Part shown: positions 1,060 to 49,450 of the stretch, piece by piece
Layout of the letters: the number at the start of each line of letters is the position of its first letter
How positions within the stretch are numbered: the stretch's first letter is position 1
Virus record (IMG/VR): IMGVR_UViG_3300042542_006078
Direction: 5' to 3' (one strand)
Source: a virus
Lineage: Duplodnaviria; Caudoviricetes
Length of the DNA stretch: 64,000 nt
Program-made: the position numbers and the translations under genes
The notes under the pieces: generated by a model
The model's input: the letters and a program-made list of their open reading frames with translations, nothing else
What the model was told of the DNA's origin: nothing
Databases searched by the model: none

Positions 1060-2379
1060 TTATGGTTCTCTTCTCAATGAAATATAGAGATTATCTTGAT
1101 CGACAGAGGTAAAAAGTGCTTCGCAACCATTGCTGAATTTAGTTGCAGGATTTCCACCTTCTAACATTCCATTAACACTTTTCCACCAATTGGCTTCTTC
1201 TTTGGTAACATGTTTCTTGGAATCGTGCTTTTTGCCATGGTGTTTGCGTTTGCGAAGTTCGGCAAAGTCATGACCAGTAATCTTTCCGTCTGGCTTGCCT
1301 TTTGGTCCTGAAACATCGAGTTTCTTTTGTCCGCCCTTCAGCATCTTTTTCTTTTCAGTCATACCACAGCCCATGTATTTCATCTTTTTCTTTTCAGTCA
1401 TATCAGAGTCCATGCATTTCATCTTTTTCTTTTCAGTCATATCAGAGTCCATGCATTTCATCTTTTTCTTTTCAGTCATATCAGAGTCCATGTATTTCAT
1501 CTTTTTCTCGTCAGTCATACCACAGCCCATGTATTTCATCTTTTTCTTACCATACATTTTGGCTTCCATGCGAGGCATATCTTCTTCTTCATGATCTTCA
1601 TCATCGTGGCTCAACATATCTTCATCACGACCTTCTTTGTCATGACCTAGCATATCATCTTCATCTTCATCTTCATCTTCATCTTCATCTTCGTATTCAT
1701 CTTCATCTTCGTATTCATCTTCATCTTCATCTTCATCTTCATCTTCGTATTCATCTTCGTATTCTTGATCATGGTCTTCGTCGCCATGACCTAGCATATC
1801 ATCTTCATCTTCATCTTCATCTTCATCTTCATCTTCATCTTCATCTTCATCTTCATCTTCATCTTCATCTTCATCTTCGTCATGATCTTCATGGTCGTGA
1901 TCATCTTCATGGTCGTGGCTAATCATTTCTTCGTCTTCGTCCTCGTCTTCGTCACCATGCTGAGTGATCATTTCTTCATCATCCATCATATCTTCGTCAT
2001 CTTGCATTTCTGTGTAATCAAAAGATTCCATCTTGCAGGAATTGCACTTTTTTGTGCCATTCTTTTTAGCCATTGAACCACACTTAGCGCCGCACTTAGA
2101 ACAAGTGCCTTGTTTGTGCTTGCGCTTGCGTTTCTTGCTCTTATGAGGCTTATGATCTTCGGAATCAAGCTCTACATCAACATCTGGCTTGTCTTTTGCC
2201 TCTGCTGGTTCAACTAGATCGGTGTCCTCGCCCTTCATCTTCTTTTTCTTTTTCTTGAACATTCCTTCCTCAAATCCAAACTGAGATTGAATGCCAAGGT
2301 TCGACGGTCTGCCCAATCCTAAATTGAAGCTAGGGAGAACAGATTCATTTACCATTTTCCATTGCTTGTATGACAACAT
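1060..2379 (-). CDS. Acidic low-complexity protein with CTS-like N-terminus (putative head core/internal protein)
   Basis: MLSYKQWKMVNE start, long D/E tract, 13-aa tandem repeats, SD GAGAGGA upstream. Confidence 0.7.
   Translation of the reverse strand: MLSYKQWKMVNESVLPSFNLGLGRPSNLGIQSQFGFEEGMFKKKKKKMKGEDTDLVEPAEAKDKPDVDVELDSEDHKPHKSKKRKRKHKQGTCSKCGAKCGSMAKKNGTKKCNSCKMESFDYTEMQDDEDMMDDEEMITQHGDEDEDEDEEMISHDHEDDHDHEDHDEDEDEDEDEDEDEDEDEDEDEDEDEDDMLGHGDEDHDQEYEDEYEDEDEDEDEDEYEDEDEYEDEDEDEDEDEDDMLGHDKEGRDEDMLSHDDEDHEEEDMPRMEAKMYGKKKMKYMGCGMTDEKKMKYMDSDMTEKKKMKCMDSDMTEKKKMKCMDSDMTEKKKMKYMGCGMTEKKKMLKGGQKKLDVSGPKGKPDGKITGHDFAELRKRKHHGKKHDSKKHVTKEEANWWKSVNGMLEGGNPATKFSNGCEALFTSVDQDNLYISLRREP
1342..1545. 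repeat. 39-bp tandem repeat, five copies plus a partial, encoding MTEKKKMK(Y/C)M(DSD/GCG)
   Basis: Units start at 1342, 1381, 1420, 1459, 1498 and 1537 (partial). Confidence 0.95.
1655..1880. repeat. (TCTTCA)n coding microsatellite encoding poly-(Glu-Asp)
   Basis: Long hexamer runs, with a duplicated DDMLGH segment; approximate bounds. Confidence 0.9.
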
Positions 2380-2388
2380 TGTATTCCT

Positions 2389-2432
2389 CTCACCGTCATT
2401 TGAGGACGGGGCTCACCGTCAAATAATGACGG
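2389..2432 (-). promoter_or_regulatory. Tandem CTCA-CCGTC-N7-GACGG inverted-repeat elements in a 5' leader
   Basis: CCGTC 2393-2397/GACGG 2405-2409 and CCGTC 2416-2420/GACGG 2428-2432, 23-bp period, directly upstream of the SD. Confidence 0.55.
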
Positions 2433-2486
2433 ATAAATGAAACTAATCTATATATGTACAGTTAAAATTTTTTATTCGGTAAAAGC

Positions 2487-3290
2487 ATGAGAAAACTATT
2501 GGTTGCGACTATTATCATCTTTGGTTTTTTATGCATTTATTATTCAATTAAATACAAACATAAAAAAAATATTCAAAATGAAACAAGTTTACCTCATATG
2601 GAAAACAAGAAACCAATTAATAAAAACATTCCAGTTATAAATAAAATCAATGAAAAAAATGCAAAAATTAGATCGGTTTTGCTCAAGTCTATGCCAATCA
2701 AAATCAATAATGGCAATTTTACTTTTAGATTAACTGGTGATTTGGCTCACGAAAAAGAAAAAAACTTTCGTTTCATAGCAACAAGTAAATTAACTGGTAG
2801 GGAAATGGATTTGGGATCAAATAGGGAAATTTTTTGGTTTTGGTCTAAAAGAATCAATCCTCCAGCACTTTACTTTGCCAAGCATGAAGATCTGTCAAAA
2901 ACAAATCTTAAAACCCCATTGAATCCTTCTTGGATGATTGAATCATTGAATGTAGGACTTGTTAATCAAAAAAATATACATGGTTTTACAGAAACTGATA
3001 TTTATCTCCATCTTTTTGAAAAAAGGCTATCTTCTTCTGGGGAAGATTGCATATTCATGACAACAATCAATAAATTAACTGAAAATATTTGTTCTAGAAG
3101 ATTGACAGACAGTAATGGAAAAGTAATAGTAAGCACGGCATATAACGACCATATAACCACGATAGAATGGAAAGATGAAAATGTGACTATGGAATGGGAC
3201 ACGAAGGTCAGACAACTTAATGTTGATCTGCCCGAATCTATGTGGAAAATTCCCGATTATAAAAAGAAAATTAATATGGCGATTGAATGA
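2487..3290 (+). CDS. Hypothetical membrane-anchored/exported protein
   Basis: N-terminal hydrophobic helix; GSNREIFWFWSK..PPALYF motif. Confidence 0.7.
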   Translation: MRKLLVATIIIFGFLCIYYSIKYKHKKNIQNETSLPHMENKKPINKNIPVINKINEKNAKIRSVLLKSMPIKINNGNFTFRLTGDLAHEKEKNFRFIATSKLTGREMDLGSNREIFWFWSKRINPPALYFAKHEDLSKTNLKTPLNPSWMIESLNVGLVNQKNIHGFTETDIYLHLFEKRLSSSGEDCIFMTTINKLTENICSRRLTDSNGKVIVSTAYNDHITTIEWKDENVTMEWDTKVRQLNVDLPESMWKIPDYKKKINMAIE

Positions 3291-3524
3291 TTACTTGTTC
3301 AAAGATTTTCTAATTGCATCTCTTCTGAGAGCCTGAACTTTTCTTCTTTCCAAGTTGACACCTCCAGAATTGACAGGCGTTTGTGGAGGAACAGCCTGAT
3401 TTCTCACTTCGGTAGGAGTTCGGACTGATGCCACTCCTCTTGTTGTGGATCTTGCTGATGTGATAGGCCTAACCATTGGTGTTCTGCTATTGCTTCCAAC
3501 ACCTTTTTTGCAACCACAAGCCAT
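3291..3524 (-). CDS. Small basic protein with N-terminal CGC motif
   Basis: MACGCKK start, SD GGAGG upstream. Confidence 0.65.
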   Translation of the reverse strand: MACGCKKGVGSNSRTPMVRPITSARSTTRGVASVRTPTEVRNQAVPPQTPVNSGGVNLERRKVQALRRDAIRKSLNK

Positions 3525-3538
3525 AGTCCTCCATTTCC

Positions 3539-6596: not shown

Positions 6597-6821
6597 ATGA
6601 ATACATTTGTTAAATGGGCAGAAAAAACCAAAAAAGAACTTCCTGTTTACATGCAGGATGAAGCAACACGCCGTGCTGGCATTGCTTATTGGGCTTATCC
6701 AGATGCGTATGTTCGCAATCAATATCCAGATGCTTGGTTTACTCCATACGCAGCCGATGCTCCATTCAAGCTTGGTTACGGAAAAGGTGGTCCTAAGGCG
6801 AATAAACAGGTGGATGGCTGA
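6597..6821 (+). CDS. Small CTS-like protein, paralog 1 (GIAYWAYPD family)
   Basis: MNTFVKWAE start; SD GAGG; TACATA box at 6548-6553. Confidence 0.75.
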   Translation: MNTFVKWAEKTKKELPVYMQDEATRRAGIAYWAYPDAYVRNQYPDAWFTPYAADAPFKLGYGKGGPKANKQVDG

Positions 6822-7132
6822 TTAAAAGTTTCATTCAATGGGCAACTGACAATAAGTTTGAACTACCAGTTTTTCAAACAGATGAAGGCGGTGGCAGCAC
6901 TGCAAGAGGTGGCATTGCTTATTGGGCATATCCTGATGGATATATCAGAGCGCATTATCCAGATGCTTACTTTATGAGTCGTGCTGCTGATGCCTTATTC
7001 AAGATGCATCCCGGCCCGCCAATCACTAAATACAAACACCATGTCAGTCGTCACATGACATCTCCCAACTATGCGATTGGGCCAGATAGTGAAATTGAGT
7101 ACGAAAAGGAAAAAGATTACGAAACAGAATGA
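6818..7132 (+). CDS. Small CTS-like protein, paralog 2 (missed by ORF track; probable CTG start)
   Basis: Translates (L)IKSFIQWATDNKFELPVF...GGIAYWAYPDGYIRAHYPDAYF...AADALFK, clearly paralogous to 6597-6821; in-frame TAA at 6803-6805, no ATG before the conserved region. Confidence 0.75.
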   Translation: MIKSFIQWATDNKFELPVFQTDEGGGSTARGGIAYWAYPDGYIRAHYPDAYFMSRAADALFKMHPGPPITKYKHHVSRHMTSPNYAIGPDSEIEYEKEKDYETE

Positions 7133-9549: not shown

Positions 9550-10037
9550 CTCTTTTTCTCAGAAATCCATTCCGAAAATGATTTGATTTGTGGAAGACGC
9601 TTTTTGATTTTTTCGCAAAAATATGGCCAATTAGAAGAAAATCTTGGATGTAAATTCAACTTGTTAACATCATCCAGTGACACCCATTTTGAATCACTGT
9701 GTTCATCAGATAATCGAACATCAAAAGGTTTATCTATAGCGTAAAAAAATGTATGGAAGTGATGTCTTCCATCTGCATCGTCATAGTGTCCGAACCTATA
9801 ACCGGAAAAATGACCGCATTCTTCTCTTGCTTCCCTTTGGGCAGCATCAATGATGTTTTCACCATTCTCGACTTTGCCGCCCGGTATGCTCCATTTGCCA
9901 AAATGGTCGCCCTTTTCAGCCCTTTTTAATAAAAGAATTTTCTTACCATCGGTAAAAATTATCCCTGCCCCAGCTTTGCCCCAATATTTTTTGCCATCCT
10001 TGCCAAAATGATGATATTGTTCACGCCAATTCATCAT
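9546..10037 (-). CDS. NUDIX hydrolase
   Basis: NUDIX box GGKVENGENIIDAAQREAREE. Confidence 0.9.
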   Translation of the reverse strand: MMNWREQYHHFGKDGKKYWGKAGAGIIFTDGKKILLLKRAEKGDHFGKWSIPGGKVENGENIIDAAQREAREECGHFSGYRFGHYDDADGRHHFHTFFYAIDKPFDVRLSDEHSDSKWVSLDDVNKLNLHPRFSSNWPYFCEKIKKRLPQIKSFSEWISEKKS

Positions 10038-10624
10038 TTTGGCCCTCTTTTCAATGGAACTGGTTTTAATTTTTCACGATGATTGTCTGGCTGATCTTTC
10101 AAGTGATGCATTGTGTTAATCACTTCTTTTGTTATTTCAGAAGCAGAGTTTCCAGAACATTTTTCAGATTTTGTTATGCTTATTGTTTGCCTGTCACGAT
10201 TGTAAATGCCTTTATTTAGAATAAAACATTTATGATCAGGATTCCATGTTACACATCCAGTCCACTCTCCATCATCCCAGTTTCTAGAGGAGATCAAAAG
10301 TCTTAATGGCTTCTCCGTGTAAACATGTTTTGTGTGATATCCCGCTTTTTTCAAGGCTGCGCTTATGTAGCCCAAACAGATCTTTGCAAATCCTTCTAAA
10401 GCTTCTTCTCCAGTAGTTCTGTAATTAACTTCAACTGAATATCTTGATGTCTCAACTGCTTCAATCAGGTTCTCAGACCTGTATTGATGGACAGTTTTCA
10501 TATTGCCACGAATGGCAGAACCAAAATATTCAAGGCAAACATCGAGAAATTGGGGCTTAGTGACAACTTGAATCTGAGTCCCTTCAAGATTTTGCTCTTT
10601 TCTCCAATCATCAAATTTTTTCAT
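10034..10624 (-). CDS. Hypothetical protein with CTS-like N-terminus
   Basis: MKKFDDWRKEQNLE; ATGA coupling to the NUDIX gene. Confidence 0.75.
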   Translation of the reverse strand: MKKFDDWRKEQNLEGTQIQVVTKPQFLDVCLEYFGSAIRGNMKTVHQYRSENLIEAVETSRYSVEVNYRTTGEEALEGFAKICLGYISAALKKAGYHTKHVYTEKPLRLLISSRNWDDGEWTGCVTWNPDHKCFILNKGIYNRDRQTISITKSEKCSGNSASEITKEVINTMHHLKDQPDNHREKLKPVPLKRGPK

Positions 10625-10647: not shown

Positions 10648-11373
10648 ATGTTATACATTAATTTCTCAGAATGGTTGTCTATTCAAGAGAGCTACAACCA
10701 GCCAATAAAAGGCATTCAATCAAGATCGACTGCAAAATACAAAAAGAGCGTAGGCCATTATCAAGAGCAATCGACACTTGGAACAGAGGAAGTTGATGCC
10801 AGACAAGTTATGTCATTATATGGAAGAGTAAAAGAGAGTGTTGAAATGGTAAAGATGTACGATCAGACTCTTCCAGTAAATCAACAATTGCTGCGTGATG
10901 TTTCAACCATAGCAAACTTGAGTGGAGGCTCTGCATTTGGAATGTTTGTCAATAGTGACAACACGAATGTAATAGGCCAAGATGTCATGCAAAAAATTAA
11001 ATTAATTTATCCAAATGATCCAATGATTGATACAAAGATAAAAAAGCTTTCAAGGAAGAAAATATTGGATACTCTACCTGATGATGTGAGAAAACAAATT
11101 GATCCCAGAAAAATACAACCATCAGACATTATAAAAATTGATGTGAAAAAACATCTTGCAAAATATGGAGATAGTGATGCTGCTGTAATAGAAATAGCCA
11201 GCACAATCGTCCATGAGGCGACACATGTTAAGGAATATGTTGAAACAGGAGAAACTTTTGATGGACCCGGCACAGCAGTAGAAAAGGCAGAAGCTTCTTT
11301 CAAAAGCTGGGTCAAGGCTAACTGGCCCACAATATCAAGAAGATTCAATTTCTCAGGTCCATATCCTTTTTGA
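10648..11373 (+). CDS. CTS-like protein with HExxH zincin motif
   Basis: MLYINFSEWLSIQE start; IASTIVHEATH. Confidence 0.7.
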   Translation: MLYINFSEWLSIQESYNQPIKGIQSRSTAKYKKSVGHYQEQSTLGTEEVDARQVMSLYGRVKESVEMVKMYDQTLPVNQQLLRDVSTIANLSGGSAFGMFVNSDNTNVIGQDVMQKIKLIYPNDPMIDTKIKKLSRKKILDTLPDDVRKQIDPRKIQPSDIIKIDVKKHLAKYGDSDAAVIEIASTIVHEATHVKEYVETGETFDGPGTAVEKAEASFKSWVKANWPTISRRFNFSGPYPF

Positions 11374-13185: not shown

Positions 13186-14073
13186 TTACATCATCTTGAT
13201 TGGAAGCAAATCTCCGAATCTTACGAGCAATCTTTCTTCAAAATCCTTCTTGTCTTGTATTCCTTCTGCGAGTATAGCGGCTCCATCAAGTTGAACTCCA
13301 CCACCGGGTCCGGGTGGATTGGCGATTCTTGATCGTATTCTTCCAAGAATAATTTTAGCAAAAGCAAGAGCGCCTTCTTGCATAGCTTGTGTAACGAGTT
13401 GAAAATCCGGTTTTCTTTGAAGATATCTGACAACTACAGGATAAGTTCTGTATGGAACTGGATACAACTTGACATGGCGATAACCACCTAAATATTCCCA
13501 ACCACCTTGCTGTCCTGATATGCGGTTGTACATATCTTCATATTGTTTGTAAAGAATCCAGTCTCCCATTTTGCCCCACACAGGCTGTTGTGGGTTGATA
13601 CCACCAGCGATTGAACCATAAGCTCCAGCACCCATGTATTCCAAAGGAATTACACCACCAAGGTCTGATGCCGAAAATGCGTAATTAGCAGTTTCTTTAT
13701 AAGAAATTTGACGAATGAATCCTACATCTGCTGGCATTTCGTAAACACTTTGGCCGGGAACTGTATAAAAGCTGTAGTACTGGAAATACTCAGAAGGAGC
13801 ATAATCCTCAAAAATCTGAAGAGCGAAATCTATGCTGTTTTCAAGTTGTTGATCGTCTAATTCCAAAGGAAGAACAGGAGCGCCGAGCATTGTAAGGACA
13901 TAATCTTTAATTTGTTCTCTGACTTTTTCTCTATTTCTTCTAGCACCGATTGAAATTAAAGGATCAGTAGGTCCAAGACTTCCGCCTCCATTACAACCAG
14001 AACCGCATGATCCACAGGAAAGCTGATTGTATTGATCTTGGGTAGGCCTAGGTATGTAAATGTTATTATTCAT
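13186..14073 (-). CDS. Neck protein, T4 gp13-like
   Basis: LGAPVLPLELDDQQLENSIDFALQIF; C-terminal PGGGVQLDGAAILAEG. Confidence 0.8.
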   Translation of the reverse strand: MNNNIYIPRPTQDQYNQLSCGSCGSGCNGGGSLGPTDPLISIGARRNREKVREQIKDYVLTMLGAPVLPLELDDQQLENSIDFALQIFEDYAPSEYFQYYSFYTVPGQSVYEMPADVGFIRQISYKETANYAFSASDLGGVIPLEYMGAGAYGSIAGGINPQQPVWGKMGDWILYKQYEDMYNRISGQQGGWEYLGGYRHVKLYPVPYRTYPVVVRYLQRKPDFQLVTQAMQEGALAFAKIILGRIRSRIANPPGPGGGVQLDGAAILAEGIQDKKDFEERLLVRFGDLLPIKMM

Positions 14074-14181: not shown

Positions 14182-17064
14182 ATGTTGAAGTCATTCAGAG
14201 ATTATCTAAAAGTCGAGTACAAAAAATTACCCATTCTGATTGATTTTGATCGATTTGATGAAATGGCCCAGCAGAGACAGGTTGTTAGAAAGCCTGTCAA
14301 TCTTGACGAGGATGATATTAATTTTTTGAATCAATTTGATTACAGCAAGTGGGGAGACGCAATCCACCAAAGATACAATCTTCTTTTTGATGAAATTGAT
14401 AGATTGCATAAGGTAAAACATGCGAGAGATTTTAAGGTGTTAATTGATGGAATCAAAAACTTTTTGAAAGATAGGTCTAAGGAAAATGTAGATTTCTTAA
14501 AGAGAATACAAGAACCATTTGACATGAGCCAAGATGAAATCGAAGAAATTGCAAACAGACAACCTTTGAGTGATATTGAAGAACTAAGCGATCATGAAAT
14601 AGAAGCTTTGGCAGAAAAGTATGCTCAAGATCATTTTGATAATAAAAACGAAGATAATGTAGGCATCATTAATGATCCTGATTATCATGATTTTGTGTTT
14701 TCTGGAAAAACACGCATTCCGGTAGAGGGTTCTCCTGCACAAACTATTGGTTCAGGAAGAAGCGCAAAAATTACCGTTCAAGCAAAGCCATACATTTTAA
14801 GGCTTTATCATAAGTTGGAAAGAACTGAGGGCGAGGAACACCTTCGTGGATCTGGATTAGAAGGTCTCAAAGCAAAATACGGTTATGAACTAAGCCATCC
14901 TGTTCGTGGAATTGGGGAAGACCCCCATGTTACAAGAGGCATGACATTCCCAACATTGAAACAATCAAGGGAAGTAGCCAAAAGGTTTATGGAACTAAAT
15001 GCTCATCGCATGTTTGGCGAATATGGACCAGATGTCAAGTGGATGGATTCTGGTTTTGAAGATTCTTTTACAAGAGAAGAAGCAATTAGAAAGTATAAAA
15101 AAATTGTAAAACAAAGTAAAGGTTGTCCATCAACAGGTTCAAAATTGGAATTAGGCCAATCAACTGACATAGATGCCGATCTTATTGAAAGAGAAGCAAT
15201 TAAATGTTTAGTCGCCGACATGAAAGCTGGTAAAAAATTTAATGGACCTCCTTATCCTCCTGATCATCGAGATGGTTTACCTCTCACTATTGGCGTAAGA
15301 ACCGTAAAGGGCGAGAGAAGAGAAGATGTTTTCGGACCTCCTCTTTATTTGCCTTTTAAGAAAAATGAAAAAGACGAATGGAAACCAGTTGTCAAGCCAG
15401 CATATTTTTATAGAAGGGCGAATGTTGAAGACAGAGTTTCTAAAGAAGCAAGAATAGGTCATAACAAAGAATACATAAAAATGCAGGATGTTGATGATCC
15501 AACTGGGGAGGAGATCAGCAAAGATGCTGCTCTAAATATAAACCAAAATACGACAAAGAGATTGCGACTTATAAAAGCCACTCCAGAATACAAAGAAGCA
15601 TACAAAAACATTATGCAAAGCCAGATTAGGGCCGAATTTACCTTTGATCGTTCGGGCGAGATAGTTGTAATGCCTAACAACAATGGTAAAATGTTTTATC
15701 GGATTTTGTTAGGTGTTGCTAAATGCATAAACAGCAAACATTGCGGCGGTAAGACAACCCACGAAATGTCCATCATGAAGAGAAATATTCCAGCCATTTA
15801 TGATTTTGCTTATAAGTATGTTGAAGATCAATTTGGAAGTGAAAAATTTTTTAGCAAAAAGACTAATCAGTTCTTAAGTGTTCCCCAGCTTCATCGTGCT
15901 GCTGAAAAATTAGCACACACAGCAACCAATTTACTTTCTCAAAAGCAACAAACTGTTGGAGGAGGAACAAGAAGAAGGAGAGCTAAATCAGAAGAAATGA
16001 GAAAGGAAAGAGAAGAGAGGCCTCTATTCCCAACAAGAATACAGTATACTGGAGATTATCTTAATTTCTCTTATGATCCTGAAAATTTTGGAAAATATTT
16101 GACTGATTTGCACAATTTGGAAGCAGAGGCTAGAGAAGAAGAATCTGTAGCAAACCAAATCAAATCAAAAAGAACTGATACCATTATCGGTAAAAATGAA
16201 CTCGGCACACTTCTGAGAAATACTATCAACAAAGAAAACGCCATTGTTGAAGATATATTACAGATACTTATAGCAGCAATAAGGAGTGTCAACAGACTAT
16301 CTCCAGAAATATCAAGACAAAATGCAGAATCACAAATCAAGGAATGGGAAAAAGAACTTCTCACTCCCGCCGCAATGATTGATAGGATGAAAGATTTGCC
16401 AGTAATCAAAAAAATGATGGAGGAGTCAAAATCTCAGATTAAAACCAGAGGTGTGGCAAACATGCCAAATATTATTGTTCAAAGAGAAATTAATGATGCA
16501 AAATCAGAATTGGATAATGATTTAACATCACATGATGCAGATAGTGCTTTCATTAAGGGAAAATATGGTCCTGCTTTTCCTCCTCCTTATGGTCCTCAGG
16601 AGCAGGAAAATCAATATGGCACATATGTTAGAAACATGGCTCAGGAATTGCAAAGCGATCCATCTTTGACTGGAGACGCAGCGGGATTTAACTATGTTTT
16701 GCAACAAGTTCAAAAATATATCAATCAAAGATTGGGAATAGGTGAAGTACAAACTCCACCAAAAGATCTCACTCCAACTCCAAATGCGAATTGGGTAAAT
16801 TTAATGAACAAAGAGCAAAATCCTCAGAATTTGTTCGATATTGTATCTGATCCTAATTTTGCCAAAAATGCCATGGATAACATGACTGCAAAATTAAAGG
16901 GTAGAATTGATAAAATCAAAAATAAATTTACTCAGAATGATTATGAAAAGATGATGAAAATTTTAGATGATACTGGAAAAAGAGCGCAATCTGATGAAAA
17001 ACTTGCTGGCGATTATAGAATAAGATTTAGGCCCAGAACATCAACTAAAGACGAGGATGAATAA
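14182..17064 (+). CDS. 960-aa hypothetical protein with CTS-like N-terminus
   Basis: MLKSFRDYLKVE; no recognisable domain. Confidence 0.8.
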   Translation: MLKSFRDYLKVEYKKLPILIDFDRFDEMAQQRQVVRKPVNLDEDDINFLNQFDYSKWGDAIHQRYNLLFDEIDRLHKVKHARDFKVLIDGIKNFLKDRSKENVDFLKRIQEPFDMSQDEIEEIANRQPLSDIEELSDHEIEALAEKYAQDHFDNKNEDNVGIINDPDYHDFVFSGKTRIPVEGSPAQTIGSGRSAKITVQAKPYILRLYHKLERTEGEEHLRGSGLEGLKAKYGYELSHPVRGIGEDPHVTRGMTFPTLKQSREVAKRFMELNAHRMFGEYGPDVKWMDSGFEDSFTREEAIRKYKKIVKQSKGCPSTGSKLELGQSTDIDADLIEREAIKCLVADMKAGKKFNGPPYPPDHRDGLPLTIGVRTVKGERREDVFGPPLYLPFKKNEKDEWKPVVKPAYFYRRANVEDRVSKEARIGHNKEYIKMQDVDDPTGEEISKDAALNINQNTTKRLRLIKATPEYKEAYKNIMQSQIRAEFTFDRSGEIVVMPNNNGKMFYRILLGVAKCINSKHCGGKTTHEMSIMKRNIPAIYDFAYKYVEDQFGSEKFFSKKTNQFLSVPQLHRAAEKLAHTATNLLSQKQQTVGGGTRRRRAKSEEMRKEREERPLFPTRIQYTGDYLNFSYDPENFGKYLTDLHNLEAEAREEESVANQIKSKRTDTIIGKNELGTLLRNTINKENAIVEDILQILIAAIRSVNRLSPEISRQNAESQIKEWEKELLTPAAMIDRMKDLPVIKKMMEESKSQIKTRGVANMPNIIVQREINDAKSELDNDLTSHDADSAFIKGKYGPAFPPPYGPQEQENQYGTYVRNMAQELQSDPSLTGDAAGFNYVLQQVQKYINQRLGIGEVQTPPKDLTPTPNANWVNLMNKEQNPQNLFDIVSDPNFAKNAMDNMTAKLKGRIDKIKNKFTQNDYEKMMKILDDTGKRAQSDEKLAGDYRIRFRPRTSTKDEDE

Positions 17065-18542: not shown

Positions 18543-21185
18543 ATGATTACATTCGACTATTTGAATTTTATTTTGTCTGAGGCCAAGAAAAGTAAAAAAT
18601 TTGTTGGGCCAAGAATGAGTGGCAGCTATGACAGATATTTTCTGCCATTTCATGCAGACATTGAATCAAAGTGGGAAAAATTTAATGATGAATATAAAAA
18701 AAGCTTTAATTCAAGCCTTACTCCTCCAGAGTCCACTGAGCGTATCTGGACAAGCGACGATGAGAGAGAACGCAGGCAAGGCGTGGCAGGCAAGAAGGTA
18801 AAACAAGCCCAGCCAAGAGGAAAAGGATCAGGCACAAAAGGAAAAGATTTAGAAGCTTCTTATGGAGTTAAGTTTAAGAACAAATTTAACAAATTAATTG
18901 CCAATACTCTAGGATTTTTCAGCTTTGATGCTAAAGGTAAAAAAAATTATGCAAACATCAATTTTTACGGACAATTGATGGCAATTTGTTCAAACCAAGC
19001 AAAGATACTAAATTCAAGACTCAAGTTTGATGTGCCATTGGTTTTCGGAGGCATGGCAACAAGACTATGGTCTACTGAGAGACAAGAAGTCAGTCGTGGA
19101 GTCGAAGGTGGCGCTGGTATTCTTAATCCAGAATCAGAACAAAACAAAGAAATCAAGTCAAAATGGATAGTATCCAAAGATTCTAGCGGTAGACAAGTAG
19201 GACATCTTGATCCAAAAGATTTTAATGATGTGGCTGATACGCTGAGGGCTAATGCAAGGAATGCCGCTAAAAACTTTATTGAAAACGAAGACTTAAGGTT
19301 TAGGAGAGAAAGTGGATATTCTCAGGACTCTAAGGGAAGGGATGTCGAACTTGATCCAAGTTCTAAGATAACCGGAGAAAGAGAATCGATTGGAAAAGTT
19401 GAATTGGCTCATAACATGTATGAGCTATTCAAAAAATACATCGACACAAGAGATGAAAAATTCTATGATGATGCCAAGAATCTTTGGGACAACATCAAGT
19501 CCAGAGAAAGATTAAAATTTAGGTATTCTGGGGAATGGCAGAGATTTATAGATGAAGTTAAAGGTTATCCAAAAAAAATAGCCAACGAAAAATTAGCTGA
19601 ACTATCTCGTCTTGGAATGGGAGCGGGTACTGAATTCAAAACAGGATATGGATCAAGAAGAGCAGAAGTTGCCCATCGGGCTTTTATCGACAAAGTAAAG
19701 CGTAGGATGGAAAGTTATGTAAACTTTTATGAACTAATTTCTGATCCTAATTTTTATAATGAAGTCCAGAAAATGGCTATTGATAATTATGAAGAAATGA
19801 AAGTTTACAATTCTGGTCCAACAATTCGGTACAAATTCCTATCTAACGATAAGAACCCAATAAGTAATTATGTCAGAATAGATTTTGTGAATGCATTACT
19901 CAAAAAATATCCGATTTTCTCCCAAGTGGACTATTCTGAACCTTTGAATCTAATTAAGAACTTTGTTCAAGAATCGTTGAATGACTATGCAGCAGGTGCA
20001 AAAAAGCTGCCTAAAATGAGCGGTAACGCTTTGAGAGGATATAAGCAAACAATCGAAAAATTCAAAGAAGCAGGTGAAATTGCAGATATAGTTTTGAGCA
20101 AGGGGGAAGGACAAGAATTATCAGCTTCAGAATTAGTAAAGCGTTCTGTTGTTCTTGGCAAGCCAATGAAACTAGACAGGGCAACTGAGCTTGTAACCTT
20201 GGTTGGAAAAATACAATCTCAGACTGAAATAAACGCAGAAGATTTGATTCCGGGTGACTTTGAAGTTCCAGAAAAACCATCTTATAAGCCACAAGTGGAA
20301 ATCGATCCAGACTACGACACTCAATTTGCTGATATTCAGGCTAAGGCAAAAGAGGCCGAAGCCAAAGAGCAAGAAAAAATCAATAAACAATATAATGCTG
20401 ATATTGAAAAGGTTCAAGAACTTGAAAAAGAAGATGATGAAAGAGAAAAAAAAGGTGAGCCCAGAATGTATGTCAGGGACAAAAACTTGCCTCTTAGTCA
20501 GCGTGGAGATGATATTGACCTTGGTAAAAGAGGAACTTATCTTGGCGACTTGAGTAATTTTGGAGTCCCTGTTGAGCCATTGGCGACTCTTCGCAAAAGA
20601 ATCAAAGCCCTTGGCCATTTAGTTGTTTATGGCCCAAGCGCAATTTATGGCACAACTATAGATTATGGCCAAGAAAAAAGAGGCGACTATGAATCTGGAC
20701 CAGAAGTAGAATTCGGTCCAAGTTTTGGAAAACGAGGACCAAAATTGCTTTATTCGCCAACTGATCCAGAATACAAAACGGGCGCTTACACTATGGAACC
20801 GGCTAAGTATTATCCCGGTGGCAAAGCAAGAACTTCTGAATACAAACCAAGAAAAGTATTAGGTATGGCTCGCAAATATGACAACATCATGAGAGATTTG
20901 CCTGATCCAGTTATGACAAAGCCGCCAACTACTTTGACTACTACAGTTACTCCTCCAAGAGGAAAATTTAGTTGGTCTGATGTTTCTTTGAGGCCTAAAA
21001 CTTCGATTGAACCAATAGGATCTATAGAAAAAACTACTGGACCTGAAAAAAATGTGCCTATTCCGGGCAAAGCAATCGATGATCCTCTCCGATTTACTAG
21101 ATTTGAAGGTTATCGTAATGCACAGGCCAAATGGAAGCCTTTGCTTGAACACATCGTTGATTCAAAATTTCCTTGGATGAGGTAA
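18543..21185 (+). CDS. 880-aa hypothetical protein with CTS-like N-terminus
   Basis: MITFDYLNFILSE; TAAATA at 18521-18526; SD GAGG. Confidence 0.8.
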   Translation: MITFDYLNFILSEAKKSKKFVGPRMSGSYDRYFLPFHADIESKWEKFNDEYKKSFNSSLTPPESTERIWTSDDERERRQGVAGKKVKQAQPRGKGSGTKGKDLEASYGVKFKNKFNKLIANTLGFFSFDAKGKKNYANINFYGQLMAICSNQAKILNSRLKFDVPLVFGGMATRLWSTERQEVSRGVEGGAGILNPESEQNKEIKSKWIVSKDSSGRQVGHLDPKDFNDVADTLRANARNAAKNFIENEDLRFRRESGYSQDSKGRDVELDPSSKITGERESIGKVELAHNMYELFKKYIDTRDEKFYDDAKNLWDNIKSRERLKFRYSGEWQRFIDEVKGYPKKIANEKLAELSRLGMGAGTEFKTGYGSRRAEVAHRAFIDKVKRRMESYVNFYELISDPNFYNEVQKMAIDNYEEMKVYNSGPTIRYKFLSNDKNPISNYVRIDFVNALLKKYPIFSQVDYSEPLNLIKNFVQESLNDYAAGAKKLPKMSGNALRGYKQTIEKFKEAGEIADIVLSKGEGQELSASELVKRSVVLGKPMKLDRATELVTLVGKIQSQTEINAEDLIPGDFEVPEKPSYKPQVEIDPDYDTQFADIQAKAKEAEAKEQEKINKQYNADIEKVQELEKEDDEREKKGEPRMYVRDKNLPLSQRGDDIDLGKRGTYLGDLSNFGVPVEPLATLRKRIKALGHLVVYGPSAIYGTTIDYGQEKRGDYESGPEVEFGPSFGKRGPKLLYSPTDPEYKTGAYTMEPAKYYPGGKARTSEYKPRKVLGMARKYDNIMRDLPDPVMTKPPTTLTTTVTPPRGKFSWSDVSLRPKTSIEPIGSIEKTTGPEKNVPIPGKAIDDPLRFTRFEGYRNAQAKWKPLLEHIVDSKFPWMR

Positions 21186-21758: not shown

Positions 21759-22121
21759 ATGAAGTCTTTTTATGAGTTTTATCTTCAGATTCAAAGAGAA
21801 AATGCCGCTGCTCCTGCCGCCGGTGCTGCCCCTGCTGCTGCTCCTGCCGCTGCCCCTGCTGCTGGTGCGGCCCCTGCTGCTGGTGCTGCTCCTGCTGCTG
21901 GTGCTGCCCCTGCTGCTGGTGCGGCTCCTGCTGCTGGTGCGGCTCCTGCTGCTGCTGGCACAGCGAAGCCTGTTCCTCCACAAGACCCGGGAGTTGCTGC
22001 TTTCATAACTGCTGTTGGCAAAAACACAAAGGTTTATCAGGATGCATTGTCCCAAATTAAAGATCCCAAGTTAGCGCCAGCAGCGAAAGCGATATCTGCT
22101 CTTCTTAATCCTCAAAAATAA
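21759..22121 (+). CDS. CTS-like protein with (AAPAAG)n linker
   Basis: MKSFYEFYLQIQRE followed by 18-bp Ala/Pro/Gly repeats (about 21805-21955). Confidence 0.75.
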   Translation: MKSFYEFYLQIQRENAAAPAAGAAPAAAPAAAPAAGAAPAAGAAPAAGAAPAAGAAPAAGAAPAAAGTAKPVPPQDPGVAAFITAVGKNTKVYQDALSQIKDPKLAPAAKAISALLNPQK

Positions 22122-23116: not shown

Positions 23117-24103
23117 ATGAAACCAGATTCAGGATCACATCAACAACGACCTTACGATCAATGCAATGAAATTGCAAGTGTTCCCGATCCCATTCTAGAT
23201 CAACCGCCACCTTTTTGCGATCCCGATTCCAATCCAAATCTGAGAAGTGTAAATGATGAAAGCATGAACTGGCTTAAAGACCAGACTATGAAAAAAACAG
23301 GTTTCGGGGCAAATGCAAATAGCGATCCAATGCAAAAGGGTAAAATACTCAATGACCCGGATGCAAATAATCGTGCTGTACTTTATCGCTATTCAAGAGG
23401 TCTTCGTGGAAGCGACGAGGCCATGCTGGACCTTTTCAGGAATGTCATTGTGATTGACGAAGACGGCAAGGCTTGGCCAGTACCAATAATGCTTGGTCCT
23501 CCTGAAAAAGCTGTTGCTGCTATGATTCAGGAAAATGTAAGAAAAGATGAAACTCTTGTTGTTAACCGTATTAGACTTCCAATGATGGCAATGACACAAA
23601 CCAACATTGAATATGATATTAATAGATACACATATCATAAGGCTCTCAATTATTTCTTGGACGAAGAAGGAAAACCGTCAATAACACAGAGCGAAAGATA
23701 CAAAAAAGATACAATTTTTGGATTTGCGAGGGGTATTCCTGTCAATATGGGGTACACCGTAACTGCTTGGACACTGTATAGAGAAGACATGAACCAAATA
23801 GTAGAGCAAATAATGACAAAATTTAGCCAAGTCGCATATATAAGAGTGACTGGTGTACCATGGGAAGTGATTGTCAAATTAGACTCTGTTGCCAACAACC
23901 TGAACAATGAGCCGGGAGATCAGCAAATTAGAGTAATAAAATATGAATTTAATATGACGGCACAAACATATATACCACAACCAATCGAACGCAAGAAGGC
24001 TGTTCTGAGTGCTAAAGTTGATTTTGTTGACGGATTGACAGATGAAACTGTAACAGAAGTTTTGGCGAGAATTGAACAGTCAGTAAAGGAATTAGAATGC
24101 TAG
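23117..24103 (+). CDS. Tail terminator/sheath stabiliser, T4 gp15-like
   Basis: VPIMLGPPEK, RIRLPMMAM..IEYD..R, PVNMGYTVTAW..EDMNQIVEQI; directly upstream of the sheath. Confidence 0.8.
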   Translation: MKPDSGSHQQRPYDQCNEIASVPDPILDQPPPFCDPDSNPNLRSVNDESMNWLKDQTMKKTGFGANANSDPMQKGKILNDPDANNRAVLYRYSRGLRGSDEAMLDLFRNVIVIDEDGKAWPVPIMLGPPEKAVAAMIQENVRKDETLVVNRIRLPMMAMTQTNIEYDINRYTYHKALNYFLDEEGKPSITQSERYKKDTIFGFARGIPVNMGYTVTAWTLYREDMNQIVEQIMTKFSQVAYIRVTGVPWEVIVKLDSVANNLNNEPGDQQIRVIKYEFNMTAQTYIPQPIERKKAVLSAKVDFVDGLTDETVTEVLARIEQSVKELEC

Positions 24104-24318
24104 AAATAACGAATAAGAAAAGGCATCCTGTGCAATTGATCATTAGGTCTAGGAGAGCCATTAAATCTTTCACTACATTAAACCTTCCCGGCGTTGGTGC
24201 AGGAAAAAATGTTTTAGTTTTGGAAGATGAAAGATCAACACCATATATAGATAGAGCAGAAAAAGATGGATTGATTTCCATAAGGCATATAACAAACAAG
24301 TTACGAAAGGGAGAATAA
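24097..24318 (+). CDS. Small hypothetical protein
   Basis: Overlaps the gp15-like stop, within the tail operon. Confidence 0.6.
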   Translation: MLEITNKKRHPVQLIIRSRRAIKSFTTLNLPGVGAGKNVLVLEDERSTPYIDRAEKDGLISIRHITNKLRKGE

Positions 24319-24322
24319 GACT

Positions 24323-26683: not shown

Positions 26684-26712
26684 GTTGAAATAATTTTTAC
26701 AAGGAGAATAAG

Positions 26713-27306
26713 ATGGCTATAATTGGTGGAAATATGGGCCTTGATAAAATCGGCGGGCCAGCGATTGTTTTCAAGCGCAAGTACAGATGGACATTTGATG
26801 TTCAATGGAACAACCAAATTGTTCCCAGTGCATTCGTGAAAGTTGCAAGCCGCCCCAATCTCACGATTGAGGAAACTGAAATTAACTATCTTCACGGCAA
26901 GATGTGGATTCCCGGCAAAGGTAGTTGGGAATCTATCACCGTGACCTACTATGATATCGGTGGTGCTGGCGCTGGTGGTATGCAGACTCTGTGGAACTGG
27001 CTTGCATCCGTTTACAACTTCACCGACCCTAATAGCCTTTCGCAGACATCACGAAGAGGCAATGACGGAACAGAAGGTGGTTGGGCTGCTGTTGGCACAT
27101 TGAGTATGTACGATGGTACTGGTGCGACTATGGAAACATGGGAATTAAAGAACATGTGGCCAACCGCTGTTAACTTTGGCGACCTCGACTATAGTAGCTC
27201 CGAAGAAGCAAGTCTTGAGTTGACTCTCAGATTTAGCGAAGCTAGATACACACCATCTTGCGGAATCAACAGACCAGTTCCAAGCAAGATCGGTTGCAAC
27301 GCCTAA
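26713..27306 (+). CDS. Tail tube protein 1, gp19-like
   Basis: Follows sheath; WESITVTYYD, WELKNMWPTAVNFGDLDYSSSE. Confidence 0.9.
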   Translation: MAIIGGNMGLDKIGGPAIVFKRKYRWTFDVQWNNQIVPSAFVKVASRPNLTIEETEINYLHGKMWIPGKGSWESITVTYYDIGGAGAGGMQTLWNWLASVYNFTDPNSLSQTSRRGNDGTEGGWAAVGTLSMYDGTGATMETWELKNMWPTAVNFGDLDYSSSEEASLELTLRFSEARYTPSCGINRPVPSKIGCNA

Positions 27307-27331
27307 ATATAAAACTAAAATTTCGATTTTG

Positions 27332-27361
27332 GGCCTCGTATATAAAGTACGAGGCCTTTTT
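27332..27361 (+). terminator. Terminator hairpin containing a TATATA box
   Basis: GGCCTCGTA-TATAAAG-TACGAGGCC plus T-run. Confidence 0.75.
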
Positions 27362-27378
27362 TATTTATTGGGGTTTTA

Positions 27379-27888
27379 ATGGCTCAACAAATGGGTTGGT
27401 TTGACGATTTTGGTTTATCGCAAGCTGATGGATGTTTCAAAAGAAAAAATAGATGGCTGCTTAAAATCGATAACATAAGCGCACAAGGAATTAATGCTTT
27501 GCCTCCTCAAAAGGCTTCTAGGCCATCTGTTTCCTTCAAAGAGCTTTCAATGGAGCATTTGAATGAGACTATTTATTATCCCGGCAAACCCGAGTGGAAG
27601 CCGATTACATTGACTCTTTATGACCTTAAAAAAAATAGCAACCCAGTTCTTGGTTGGATTAATCAAATTTATGACACGGGCACAGAGCAGTGGAATGCAT
27701 CAGCAGATGGTTTCAAAAAAGATGCTTATTTAGAATTGTATGATGGTACTGGAGAAACATTAGAGTCTTGGCTTCTTGTGGCCGCTTGGCCACAAGACAT
27801 CAATTTTGGTGATCTAGACATGGGAACAAGCGAGGTTGTAACTGTTGATGTCACATTAAGATATGACAGGGCCGTCTCATTGGTTTAA
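27379..27888 (+). CDS. Tail tube protein 2, gp19-like paralog
   Basis: FKRKNRW, WKPITLTLYD, WPQDINFGDLDMGTSE..LRYDRA. Confidence 0.85.
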   Translation: MAQQMGWFDDFGLSQADGCFKRKNRWLLKIDNISAQGINALPPQKASRPSVSFKELSMEHLNETIYYPGKPEWKPITLTLYDLKKNSNPVLGWINQIYDTGTEQWNASADGFKKDAYLELYDGTGETLESWLLVAAWPQDINFGDLDMGTSEVVTVDVTLRYDRAVSLV

Positions 27889-38120: not shown

Positions 38121-38690
38121 TCAAAAAGCATCCAAAGGTCCAGAACTGCCTCCAAGTGGTGGTGCTGCCATATCTTGTCCCGTGCTTCCTGTAGGAGGAG
38201 TTCCTTGCGGAGTTGCTTCCATTGTTTCAGGAGAGGCTGGGGCTCCTGCCGCAGCAGGAGGAGGTGCTGGTTCGGCTTTCTGGGGCTTGTTTTCTGTGCC
38301 AGCAGTTGTTTTTGCATCCTTGGTCTGGTCTTTTGGAGATTCAGTTGGAGCTAATTTGTTGATTGGCGCACCTAAGTCCGAAACTAATTTCTCAAGAAGT
38401 CCCACAACAGCAGAAACAGTACCGGGAAGATCACTTTTTTCATCGATAGCTTTCATCAATGCTACACCAGCCTTTTGCAAAGTCAAAAGATTTGGCTGTT
38501 CATCTTTAGGCCAACTACTATGCAAAATTCTACGAATAAGGTTGACAATACGCATGGAGTATTGCGTTAAATCTCTTGTGCCCATATTAGGAGCATCATC
38601 ACGCAATTCCTGTAAAGCGGCGAGTATGTCGCCTACTTTTTGGGCCAAATAAACCCTGTTTTCGTTAAGTAAAAAATCTTTGAATCTCAT
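38121..38690 (-). CDS. CTS-like protein with Pro/Ala-rich tail
   Basis: MRFKDFLLNE; TAGATA (minus strand, 38695-38700) 4 nt upstream. Confidence 0.75.
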   Translation of the reverse strand: MRFKDFLLNENRVYLAQKVGDILAALQELRDDAPNMGTRDLTQYSMRIVNLIRRILHSSWPKDEQPNLLTLQKAGVALMKAIDEKSDLPGTVSAVVGLLEKLVSDLGAPINKLAPTESPKDQTKDAKTTAGTENKPQKAEPAPPPAAAGAPASPETMEATPQGTPPTGSTGQDMAAPPLGGSSGPLDAF

Positions 38691-47696: not shown

Positions 47697-47840
47697 GTGG
47701 CTCTCCTTTATTTGGTATTCTGCTAAAAAACAAAGAAAAAGCAATAGCGAATAATCATTTGCCTCAGAAATGTGCCAACAAAGGGACAAATGAACCTGAT
47801 TTGTAAGCTAAAATTAAACAACTCGATGATAAATAATGCA

Positions 47841-48335
47841 ATGATTAGCTTTTCTAGATTTCTTGATGCAAAAATCCTGTTAGAACAGGATGCTCCTCCC
47901 GGTGGTCCTCCCGGTGGCGGTCCTCCTCCCGGTGGTCCTCCCGGTGGCGGTCCTCCTCCCGGTGGTGCCCCACCAATGCCTATGCCTCCCGGTGGAGGAG
48001 GTGGTCCTCCCGGCGCTGGTCCAGCACCCGGTGGAGCAGGAGGTCAGGGTCCATCCAAGAAGCTAAAAGCAGTCAACCTTTGGGATGTTCTCCAAGACAT
48101 GTTTGATTCCGATTCAAAGGAAGGCGAAGAGGGTTCAGAAGACAAGGAAAAACAAGGCGAAGAAGATTCTAATCAAGATGGAGAAAAATCGCCAGATAAA
48201 GAGCTTCCTGATTCATCGGGGCCTGCCTTTGGGATGGCGGAGCCAGCAGCAGGCATGGATACGAGCATGGGTGCCTCTCCAGTTGGCTCTGCACCTGCTG
48301 CTCCAAGCGGCCAAGCTTCTCCCGGTATGGCATAA
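47841..48335 (+). CDS. CTS-like Pro/Gly-rich low-complexity protein
   Basis: MISFSRFLDAKILLE then PPGG repeats; TAAATA at 47830-47835. Confidence 0.7.
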   Translation: MISFSRFLDAKILLEQDAPPGGPPGGGPPPGGPPGGGPPPGGAPPMPMPPGGGGGPPGAGPAPGGAGGQGPSKKLKAVNLWDVLQDMFDSDSKEGEEGSEDKEKQGEEDSNQDGEKSPDKELPDSSGPAFGMAEPAAGMDTSMGASPVGSAPAAPSGQASPGMA

Positions 48336-48392
48336 TTTTTTTTGGTGATGCTGGATATAATTATTTAATTCAAAAACCTGTCACGAACCACC

Positions 48393-48842
48393 ATGAAAAA
48401 CTGTCTATCTATTGAACAAATCGAGTTTGTGTGCGAGTCTCTTAAAAACTGGTTTGATATTTGCCAAAAGAATGGCAAACAGATTAGTTCATCCACGATT
48501 GAAAACTCATCTCTTTTGAGAAGAATTCTTTCTGGTAAAAATCCTCATCCAGAAGCGCCTCCTTACAGGTTTGGATTTCCAGATTGGGAATTACTTGAAA
48601 ATGAAGAAATCCAGATTCAAGATTTATATGAAAACAACGATTTAATCACCATCGACAAGCATGATGGTTATATTTGGTTTGACAAAAGCAAAAAATTAAT
48701 TAGTTATCCTCGTCTGAATCTTACATTTGAATACATTGAGAAAGAAATAATTCCCGACCAAAGTTGTATTGTCGAAGGTTCTGATCCAACAGAATATAAA
48801 TACATTGCAAAATTCCTAAAGAGAATCCTAAATAATTCATGA
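48393..48842 (+). CDS. Hypothetical protein
   Basis: 149-aa ORF. Confidence 0.6.
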   Translation: MKNCLSIEQIEFVCESLKNWFDICQKNGKQISSSTIENSSLLRRILSGKNPHPEAPPYRFGFPDWELLENEEIQIQDLYENNDLITIDKHDGYIWFDKSKKLISYPRLNLTFEYIEKEIIPDQSCIVEGSDPTEYKYIAKFLKRILNNS

Positions 48843-49450
48843 ATTCTTTTTCTGAATATGTCAAAATGCGAGAAGGCTTTGGCCCTTACATTGGACCTTG
48901 CATTGATACTGATAATTATCAGGTTCAAGGAGCTTGCAGCCAGTTGAACACGGATAAAAAAAATAAAAAAATAAGTTCTGGTGAATACAAACACAAGAAA
49001 AAGAAATCTCGCCAATTTTCAGAACAAGCATCCACGCCATCTTCCAGCATTCAGGCTCCTGCCGCCGCAACTCCAGCGATAGCTGGACAACAAACTCCTA
49101 TTCTTGCCACATCTCCAGATGAATCTAAAAAGAAATGGAGCGCAAGCAAGAAAGACATCATGAATTTTTGGAAAACTATCGATGCAAACAAACCCATTAC
49201 TGCTAAACCAATCAAATATGGCTTCAAAGGTTCAACATATAGTGAAGATGGCATCAGAATCACAGGAAGCCCTCAATTTATAACAACTGTTATAAGCCAT
49301 TTGAAAGATTTCCTTGCATACGAGAATCCACAAAGCAAACTTGCTGTTTCTTACAGAGAAACAGAATCGCCAAGTAAAATAACTTCTGGACAAAACAAAA
49401 CAAGTTTTGTATTCTATATCGCCGTTAAAGAAAGAGGCGACAAAGGATAA
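48839..49450 (+). CDS. CTS-like hypothetical protein
   Basis: MNSFSEYVKMRE; TAAATA at 48829-48834; GSTYSEDGIRITGS. Confidence 0.75.
   Translation: MNSFSEYVKMREGFGPYIGPCIDTDNYQVQGACSQLNTDKKNKKISSGEYKHKKKKSRQFSEQASTPSSSIQAPAAATPAIAGQQTPILATSPDESKKKWSASKKDIMNFWKTIDANKPITAKPIKYGFKGSTYSEDGIRITGSPQFITTVISHLKDFLAYENPQSKLAVSYRETESPSKITSGQNKTSFVFYIAVKERGDKG

Follow-up and report, generated by a model that had tools for sequence, protein, structure and literature searches.

Why should about ten proteins with unrelated bodies begin with nearly the same short peptide? The question is raised by IMG/VR virus record IMGVR_UViG_3300042542_006078 (Duplodnaviria; Caudoviricetes), of which one stretch of 64,000 nucleotides (hereafter, the window) was analysed. 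An earlier note on this DNA had reported that about 10 unrelated open reading frames (ORFs) between positions 1060 and 49450 share an N-terminal peptide, in which a pair of aromatic residues is followed by a glutamate, and had compared it to the capsid targeting sequence (CTS) of phage T4. Our analysis suggests that this shared N-terminus (hereafter, the tag) is likely the lineage's own version of the T4 CTS and, judging from the genes, that the phage probably carries, along with its DNA, a protein cargo of unusual size and variety, a zinc protease included.

The window phage belongs to an uncultured, giant, lake-derived lineage related to T4. Its tail sheath protein showed at most 36% identity to that of any deposited phage, and searches of a phage collection with the DNA of positions 33486–36372 and with the 960-amino-acid (aa) protein encoded at 14182–17064 returned no match. 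The gene set of the window (approximately 75 genes) was derived from codon statistics and ribosome-binding sites, and the motif was not used in gene calling. Related contigs were found through the sheath protein, and three of them were used in full: G006 (86 kb), G002 (226 kb), and G003 (343 kb), with sheath identities of 78, 81, and 61%, respectively. The GC content was 56% in G003, versus 36–38% in the others.

A shared N-terminal peptide on unrelated proteins

All eleven N-termini quoted in the earlier note were found, with the same coordinates and strands. The pattern was written as the regular expression (regex) ^M.{1,4}[FY]..[FWY].{1,8}E, and internal positions of the same proteins served as controls. 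In the window, 11 of the approximately 75 N-termini matched, versus 0.95 expected (P = 3e-9). The first aromatic residue lay at residue 3–6 in every member and at residue 4 in 6 of the 11, and the protein bodies were unrelated except for one pair (6597 and 6821), so that the description of unrelated ORFs sharing a peptide holds. Since the regex had been defined after the window data were seen, it was tested on DNA of the relatives that had not been used for its definition. There, 18, 25, and 39 N-termini matched in G006, G002, and G003, versus 1.5, 3.6, and 5.3 expected, respectively (P = 1e-13 to 1e-21), and the enrichment over the internal controls was 7- to 12-fold. The comparison with background N-termini suggested in the earlier note thus yielded enrichment in the window and in all three relatives. 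Among T4 N-termini, the same regex gave 6 matches versus 4.2 expected, i.e., no enrichment, which indicates that the motif is not a general N-terminal bias.

The tagged proteins of the window number 10, perhaps 11, and amount to approximately 3,570 aa in total, or 17% of the window. Together with those of the relatives, 93 tagged proteins were obtained, which fell into 70 body families. The motif was kept from 36% to 56% GC, with codons that followed genome usage; the leader GC content was 31% versus 49% between genomes, and TTT, AAA, and GAA gave way to TTC, AAG, and GAG. Because the peptide is conserved while its codons shift, an explanation at the RNA level is excluded.

Likeness to the T4 capsid targeting sequence

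We trained a position matrix on 82 pattern-bearing N-termini from G006, G002, and G003 only, and obtained the consensus M-K-[ST]-F-[KR]-[EQ]-W-L-x-x-x-E. Its two most informative columns were the aromatic pair at i and i+3 (F/Y, 4.2 bits; W/F/Y, 4.0 bits), followed by Leu at +4 and Glu at +5 to +8; the informative columns that lay outside the constraint of the regex were Lys at −2, Ser/Thr at −1, Glu/Gln at +2, Leu at +4, and Glu at +8. In the training leaders, the first aromatic was at residue 4 in 44 of 82 and Leu occupied +4 in 38 of 82, while Trp (TGG) was the commonest second aromatic.

When this relatives-only matrix was used to score 238 T4 N-termini (first 150 kb of the genome, AF158101), the internal proteins IPII, IPIII, and IPI ranked 2nd, 3rd, and 9th, respectively; we calculate a probability of approximately 4e-5 for three specified genes to be placed by chance among the top 9 of 238. 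Alt, gp24, gp67, and gp68, the N-termini of which are unlike the aromatic-pair tag, ranked from 93 to 196, and the likeness is therefore specific to the internal-protein tag. In the IPIII tag MKTYQEFIAE, the residues reported to matter most for targeting are 4 and 7 (Tyr and Phe), and those reported for processing are 8 and 10 (Ile and Glu) (PMC9026906, citing Mullaney and Black 1996). The conserved columns of the tag, namely the aromatic pair, Leu, and Glu, coincide with these four T4 residues. When the motif was defined without the glutamate, a Glu within 10 residues after the aromatic pair was present in 74–92% of tags versus approximately 50% of controls, in agreement with the earlier description of a Glu a few residues downstream, and [LIVM]-x-E followed the pair in 31–50% versus 12%. 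The rank above all known internal proteins (1 of 238) was taken by T4 gp61.1 (AF158101, 18966–19130), a 54-aa hypothetical protein that starts MKTFKEFIKED and, from its N-terminus, may be an unrecognised CTS-bearing protein of T4.

Within the window, the matrix drew a sharp line between members and other genes: eight N-termini scored from 8 to 15.4 (null fraction <3e-4). The N-terminus at 18543, which had been flagged as looser in the earlier note, scored 0.7, and the gene ranking next below it was at background score. A matrix score of ≥5 was considered as a cut-off for membership and rejected: one G003 regex match is a large terminase, and the cut-off also admits N-termini that lack the second aromatic, such as MITFSQRL of a 707-aa G006 protein without a Pfam match. 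The terminase (263951–265759 in G003) begins MDLKNFSKW and fits the tag pattern, probably by chance, which calls for caution with single matches.

The head machinery of the relatives was of the T4 type. In G003, G004, G005, and G006, a Peptidase_S77 gene (PF03420, the T4 gp21 family) lies beside a gp23-type capsid gene (PF07068); the head region is missing from G002 and from the nearest record, G001, both of which are fragments. The gene order in G006 is portal, a 584-aa gene, protease (5051–5728), an acidic, coiled-coil-like 300-aa gene in the scaffold position, and capsid, with small tagged genes around them; the protease, scaffold-position, and capsid genes have the arrangement of T4. The 584-aa gene (3282–5036) occupies the portal–protease interval, where T4 has core genes 67 and 68, and had no PHROG match; it starts with MKRKLISFDAFKKIEE, in which a tag-like motif is displaced by four residues. 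The N-terminal region of the G006 capsid protein contains several motifs of the hydrophobic-x-E type. Complex prediction for the scaffold-position protein and a 74-aa tagged protein gave a score of 0.00 with a poorly folded partner, which speaks neither for nor against an interaction.

An upstream element was enriched at the tagged genes. In the AT-rich genomes, TAAATA or AAATAA was located upstream of 23 of 54 tagged genes versus 45 of 409 (P = 7e-8), often 3–5 nt from the ATG. In the window, NTAAATA occurred within 40 nt upstream of 8 starts versus 1.3 expected, including that of the gp15-like gene at 23117 (CATAAATAAGGAG). The T4 late promoter is TATAAATA, and the sequence of the NTAAATA element fits a T4-like late promoter. 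The earlier note had regarded the tagged genes as mostly late-promoter-driven. This held only in part: a canonical NTAAATA precedes 18543 (GTAAATAAAA, with a ribosome-binding site), 47841 (GATAAATAAT, ending 5 nt before the ATG), and 48839 (CTAAATAATTC, abutting the ATG), and TATA variants precede 10034, 10648, and 38121, whereas the remaining five of the 11 carry no such element within 45 nt. At 38121, the window has CTATAGATAAAAT, and the G006 orthologue has the late-like CATAAATAAAAC against its ATG.

What the tagged proteins carry and how the readings compare

The tagged proteins of the window range from a zincin-like protease and a protein of 960 aa, through proteins that are highly charged or rich in Ala, Pro, and Gly, to small conserved ones. 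The 241-aa zincin-like metalloprotease (10648..11373, + strand; tag MLYINFSEWLSIQE, score 15.4) consists of the tag, a variable basic linker, T-L-G-T-E, and an HExxH domain (H189, E190, and H193). Among its 93 homologues, 82 kept the tag, down to 34% identity, and all 93 kept HExxH; most of the untagged homologues represent mis-called starts or fragments. F6, H189, E190, and H193 were invariant in an alignment of 39 homologues, and W9 was nearly so, while across the family a basic insert of 0 to approximately 50 aa separates the tag from T-[LVI]-G-T-E and the conserved body. The AF2 model (pLDDT 87) showed a short helix at residues 6–16, disorder at 24–41, and confident structure from approximately residue 50 (helix at 52), with HExxH inside a helix at 177–200. 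Since Foldseek found no match to this model at E ≤0.001, the fold assignment is based on VIA-align and the HExxH motif. In VIA-align against 48,161 chains, the best rows were almost all zincins, with middling Z values: Wss1 (Z 8.3; root-mean-square deviation 3.5, 108 aligned residues), YbeY (8.2), deuterolysin (7.6), and AsaP1 (7.0). Language-model atlas features pointed to M85/PipA-type small effector zinc proteases at a borderline score of 0.90. No curated peptidase family in Pfam, PHROG, or NCBIfam contained the protein, which belongs to an uncurated family of at least 93 metagenomic clusters. The invariant HExxH and the zincin-like predicted fold bear out the zincin named in the earlier note.

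The 960-aa tagged protein (14182..17064, + strand; tag MLKSFRDYL, score 8.0) adjoins the neck gene. It is arranged as tag, variable stretch, F-D-E27 followed by M-A, and folded body. Nearly all full-length members among its 93 representative homologues start with [ST]-F-[KR]-[DE]-[FY], and hydrophobic-x-E-M-A is nearly invariant behind a stretch of variable length, with E27 present in 55 of 56 sequences. In short family members, the tag and the Glu site merge into T4-like ten to fourteen residues (e.g., MNFKEFFEQRILVE, then MA). In the AF2 model (pLDDT 85), residues 16–27 were below 50 (disordered) and the fold began at approximately residue 31, which places hydrophobic-x-E-M-A at the border of the disordered and folded parts. 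From the alignment and the model, the N-terminus would look like a propeptide cut at a T4-type L/I-x-E site; structural conservation of the site is the alternative. Fold searches (PDB Foldseek, BFVD, AFDB clusters, and VIA wide) yielded no fold match, with rows restricted to generic helical bundles over residues 630–950 and with residues 30–620 not queried as separate domains, and a language-model atlas search with the protein was empty. The earlier note had counted two unknowns of approximately 900 aa; the 960-aa protein represents a widespread, lineage-specific family without a recognisable fold, and the other, of 880 aa, is confined to four close clusters.

In the relatives, the tag was found on FMN reductase, radical SAM, nucleotidyltransferase, Acb1/LigT-like, and caspase-like domains. 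The FMN-reductase/flavodoxin-like protein of G006 (12547–13410) starts MKTFVEYLAE, nearly letter for letter the T4 tag, and is encoded on the opposite strand from the capsid gene, approximately 3 kb downstream of it. The 203-aa two-domain protein of the window (48839..49450, + strand; MNSFSEYVKMRE then G, score 12.3) is encoded by a single gene in the window and in G002 and by two overlapping genes in G006 (78785–79419). Both G006 genes are tagged: those at 78785 (MISFKEWLKSIEE) and 78967 (MKSFRDFIAEQE) match residues 1–56 and 87–200 of the window protein, respectively. In G003, the gene at 125835 carries domain 2 with its own tag. By its sequence, the G006 pair is a natural fission or fusion event.

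On the T4 model, the amphipathic helix M-K-[ST]-F-[KR]-[EQ]-W-L-x(1-3)-E would bind the scaffolding core through its aromatic pair during prohead assembly. A variable linker, often disordered or of low complexity, visibly joins the tag to arbitrary cargo. After completion of the prohead, the S77 protease would cut behind a Glu preceded by a hydrophobic residue, and mature cargo would thereby be released inside the head and exit with the DNA at infection. Packaging, cleavage, and ejection of the tagged proteins are inferred here by analogy with T4, and some of these proteins may be components of the core or scaffold rather than ejected effectors.

Several points weigh against identifying the tag as a CTS. 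The lineage is uncultured, and virion presence and cleavage are deduced from sequence; the protease and capsid genes are known from relatives rather than from the window genome itself. The spacing from the aromatic pair to Glu is variable, strict [LIVM]-x-E is present in only approximately 40% of tags, and the conserved [LVI]-G-T-E site of the zincin family misfits the T4 L/I-x-E rule. Chance alone should supply approximately 1 regex match in the window and 5 in G003, where one of the 39 matches is the large terminase, which is not expected to be packaged. Moreover, the protein at 18543..21185 scores poorly (0.7), and the start of 38121..38690 overlaps the end of a putative CTP-synthase gene in a nucleotide-metabolism operon and lacks a linker; given this operon coupling and the missing linker, its N-terminus could be just part of the fold.

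On another reading, the tag is real but addressed to another machine, such as a phage-encoded modifying enzyme, a protease or degron pathway, a chaperone, or a non-capsid sorting system, with the T4 likeness being convergent. Two aromatics in a short amphipathic helix make a simple motif, and strict T4-type cleavage spacing is not universal. We nevertheless consider this unlikely, since the matrix singles out the T4 internal proteins among 238 N-termini, its conserved columns match the mapped T4 determinants, the relatives have a T4-type head protease and core layout, and the tagged genes lie among structural genes and behind late-like promoters. It is also quite improbable that, although the tag does address proteins to the prohead core, the majority of its bearers serve in assembly and are then degraded or left behind, rather than being effectors delivered to the host. 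T4 gp67, gp68, and gp22 are proteins of the scaffold, core, or charge-buffering type, and the protein at 1060–2379, with 33% Asp/Glu, and those at 21759 and 47841, with Ala/Pro/Gly repeats, resemble core or internal peptides more than enzymes; in G006, a tagged 115-aa gene even lies between the portal gene and the 584-aa gene that precedes the protease. The zincin of the window is enzyme-like, however, and the enzyme-type domains tagged in the relatives have no obvious role in assembly. A by-product of composition, start-codon context, or constraints on leaderless-mRNA initiation, with no protein signal at all, is very hard to credit: AT-rich second and third codons (Lys, Asn, Ile, and Phe) are favoured near starts and some tagged genes appear leaderless, but the enrichment is 7- to 12-fold, the commonest second aromatic is Trp, the peptide persists while leader codons track GC from 31% to 49%, and T4 is not enriched.

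Identification of the tag as a version of the T4 CTS remains our preferred reading, and the two have much in common: an N-terminal tag of 10–19 residues right after Met, in which positions 4 and 7 are aromatic and, in many tags, a hydrophobic residue at position 8 is followed at varying distance by a Glu. In both cases, the tag is borne by unrelated, fast-evolving proteins in phages that have, to judge for this lineage from the relatives, a gp21-type protease and a gp22/gp23-like head. The two differ in number, with 10–11 tags in 64 kb and dozens per related contig here versus three internal proteins in T4; in the second aromatic, mostly Trp here and Phe in T4; and in the Glu, mostly +8 from the first aromatic here versus +6 in T4. 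The big families of the lineage also feature linkers that are long and variable, as well as a second Glu site farther downstream, and the putative cargo, as read from the genes, extends to proteins of 960 aa, with a zincin among them. That T4 has such a tag and places it on a variety of internal proteins is well established, and reviews have proposed the CTS as an evolutionary device for packaging varied proteins (PMC3012670; PMC9026906); what differs here is the scale (approximately 1 gene in 10), the consensus, and the cargo. A limited literature search found no paper describing such a multiplication of CTS-tagged proteins in T4-like phages, whether giant or metagenomic.

Other head-packaged proteins offer partial parallels. 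T4 Alt and the other head proteins processed by gp21 (gp23, gp24, gp67, gp68, and gp22) include large enzymes that are packaged and trimmed at L/I-x-E, comparable to the hydrophobic-x-E, M-A site of the 960-aa family, although Pfam and PHROG searches found no sequence homology between these T4 proteins and those of the window. The cleavage motif of phiKZ-like phages has a small residue (A/S/G) at P3, a rule that the G-T-E site of the zincin family fits better than it does the T4 rule. We know of no common N-terminal address tag described for phiKZ-like ejection proteins. Ejection (E) proteins and propeptides have been described in these giant phages, of which SPN3US is an example (PMC7411985, PMC5694885, and PMC10052503); the giant myovirus head packs many proteins with its DNA, several of them cut by the prohead protease, but the phage lineage and the protease family are different. 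DarB of phage P1 is similar in that an N-terminal segment of at most approximately 30 residues is enough to send a large protein or reporter into a myovirus head for delivery to the host, and different in that only one client chain is known, the Dar proteins assemble stepwise, and neither a motif in common with the tag nor a separate scaffold is present (PMC9024508).

More tentatively, and with somewhat less confidence than we would need to call it likely, the capsid tag might have become a general export label, carried by approximately 1 gene in 10, or on the order of 50–100 proteins per genome of at least 434 kb, so that the virion delivers a pre-made toolkit before any gene expression. If so, the toolkit would consist of proteases, redox and nucleotide enzymes, and large machines, and the packaged proteome could be read from sequence. 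For host-disarming proteins that travel along with phage DNA, the standard example is the trio of T4 internal proteins; if the tag likewise marks approximately 10% of the genes of giant uncultured phages, the injected protein arsenal of unculturable phages would become predictable from sequence, and dozens of orphan families would gain context as candidate anti-defence or takeover effectors, including the zincin and the Acb1-like, FMN-reductase, and radical-SAM proteins. The tag variants and linkers would form a natural library for engineering protein delivery with T4-type capsids. The comparison also shows how the rules of T4 targeting, with aromatic residues at positions 4 and 7 and a putative cut site at Glu, are conserved across a very large evolutionary distance.

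The remaining tagged genes and their neighbourhood

Searches of Pfam, PHROGs, and NCBIfam gave no match for ten of the tagged window proteins, with the exception of a weak PHROG row for 38121. A low-complexity linker, which the earlier note had described as often following the tag, was present in approximately 4 of the 11, extreme in 21759 and 47841 and in the form of Lys runs in 1060 and 48839.

The 439-aa polyampholyte protein at 1060..2379 (− strand; MLSYKQWKMVNE then S, score 10.6) continues after the tag with a conserved block of 30 aa and a run of Lys, followed by Cys knuckles (CxxC), long acidic tracts, and Met/Lys/Cys repeats. Asp/Glu/His tracts account for approximately 150 residues, and the repeat is present in five copies. 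Relatives conserve only the N-terminal 40 and C-terminal 90 residues, and orthologues in G002, G006, and G003 keep ML[SG]Y..WK..NES. Upstream of the start at 2379 (2380–2430), GACGGTGAG occurs twice within 35 nt, overlapping the ribosome-binding site.

The 74-aa protein at 6597..6821 (+ strand; score 12.6) begins MNTFVKWAE, then KTKKELPVY, and has a conserved AGIAYWAYPDAY body; orthologues were present in all three relatives, each with an adjoining tagged paralogue. In the window, the corresponding 103-aa paralogue (6818..7132, + strand; score 12.4) has a non-canonical start. Its frame reads CTG (6818), ATT (6821), AAA, AGT, TTC and is open to 7132, without an ATG, GTG, or TTG start. Initiation at the ATT, which overlaps the preceding TGA and has AGGTGGA 6–7 nt upstream, would give MKSFIQW, the CTG at 6818 being the alternative start. 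The protein is 74–76% identical to those at G002 49908 and G006 40922, both of which start with ATG, and the G002 orthologue begins MKSFIQW. From these sequences, the window gene has either a rare AUU start or a recent loss of its start codon.

The gene for a 196-aa tagged protein (10034..10624, − strand; MKKFDDWRKEQNLE then G, score 10.5; orthologues at 54–82% identity) diverges from the zincin gene across a 23-bp gap centred on a TATATA palindrome (CAATATATAG / CTATATATTG), an arrangement conserved in G002 and G006. Its sequence suggests that the gap may act as a compact promoter in both directions, which would leave the plus-strand gene virtually without a leader.

Membership of the 880-aa orphan at 18543..21185 (+ strand; loose tag MITFDYLNFILSE then A) among the tagged proteins is uncertain from its sequence. 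It had only 4 homologue clusters, all at ≥74% identity and all starting MITFDYL[ND]FILSEA, directly after which one homologue has a deletion. The syntenic gene of G002 encodes an unrelated 957-aa protein with a strong tag (MLDFRSWLLFTE). The 120-aa protein at 21759..22121 (+ strand; MKSFYEFYLQIQRE then N, score 12.8) has approximately 55 aa of Ala/Pro/Gly repeats (linker entropy 1.3 bits) between the tag and a short C-terminal domain, and MKSFY[EQ]FY is kept by its orthologues in G002 and G003. The 189-aa protein at 38121..38690 (− strand; MRFKDFLLNE then N, score 11.2) has no linker; F-L-L-x-E is kept in 4 of 4 orthologues, and a PDB sequence search with it was empty. The 164-aa protein at 47841..48335 (+ strand; MISFSRFLDAKILLE then Q, score 5.1) has a Pro/Gly-rich linker (entropy 1.9 bits) and an acidic tail; its start is an internal Met of the longest ORF, and the G002 orthologue starts at the same Met.

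The surrounding genes include a neck or head–tail adaptor gene (gp13-like; 13186..14073, − strand; phrog_211, E = 1.4e-14) and, at 23117..27888 (+ strand), genes for gp15-like tail completion, sheath, and two tail tube proteins (phrog_227, phrog_23, and phrog_4542), which means that the tagged genes at 14–22 kb sit within a structural module. Elsewhere, the window encodes what we take to be gp46/gp47-like nuclease subunits, together with N-termini resembling, in our reading, those of ribonucleotide reductase and CTP synthase. The two tail-tube paralogues follow the sheath gene as a tandem pair (26713–27306 and 27379–27888), and a hairpin terminator-like element containing TATATAAAG is located between them.

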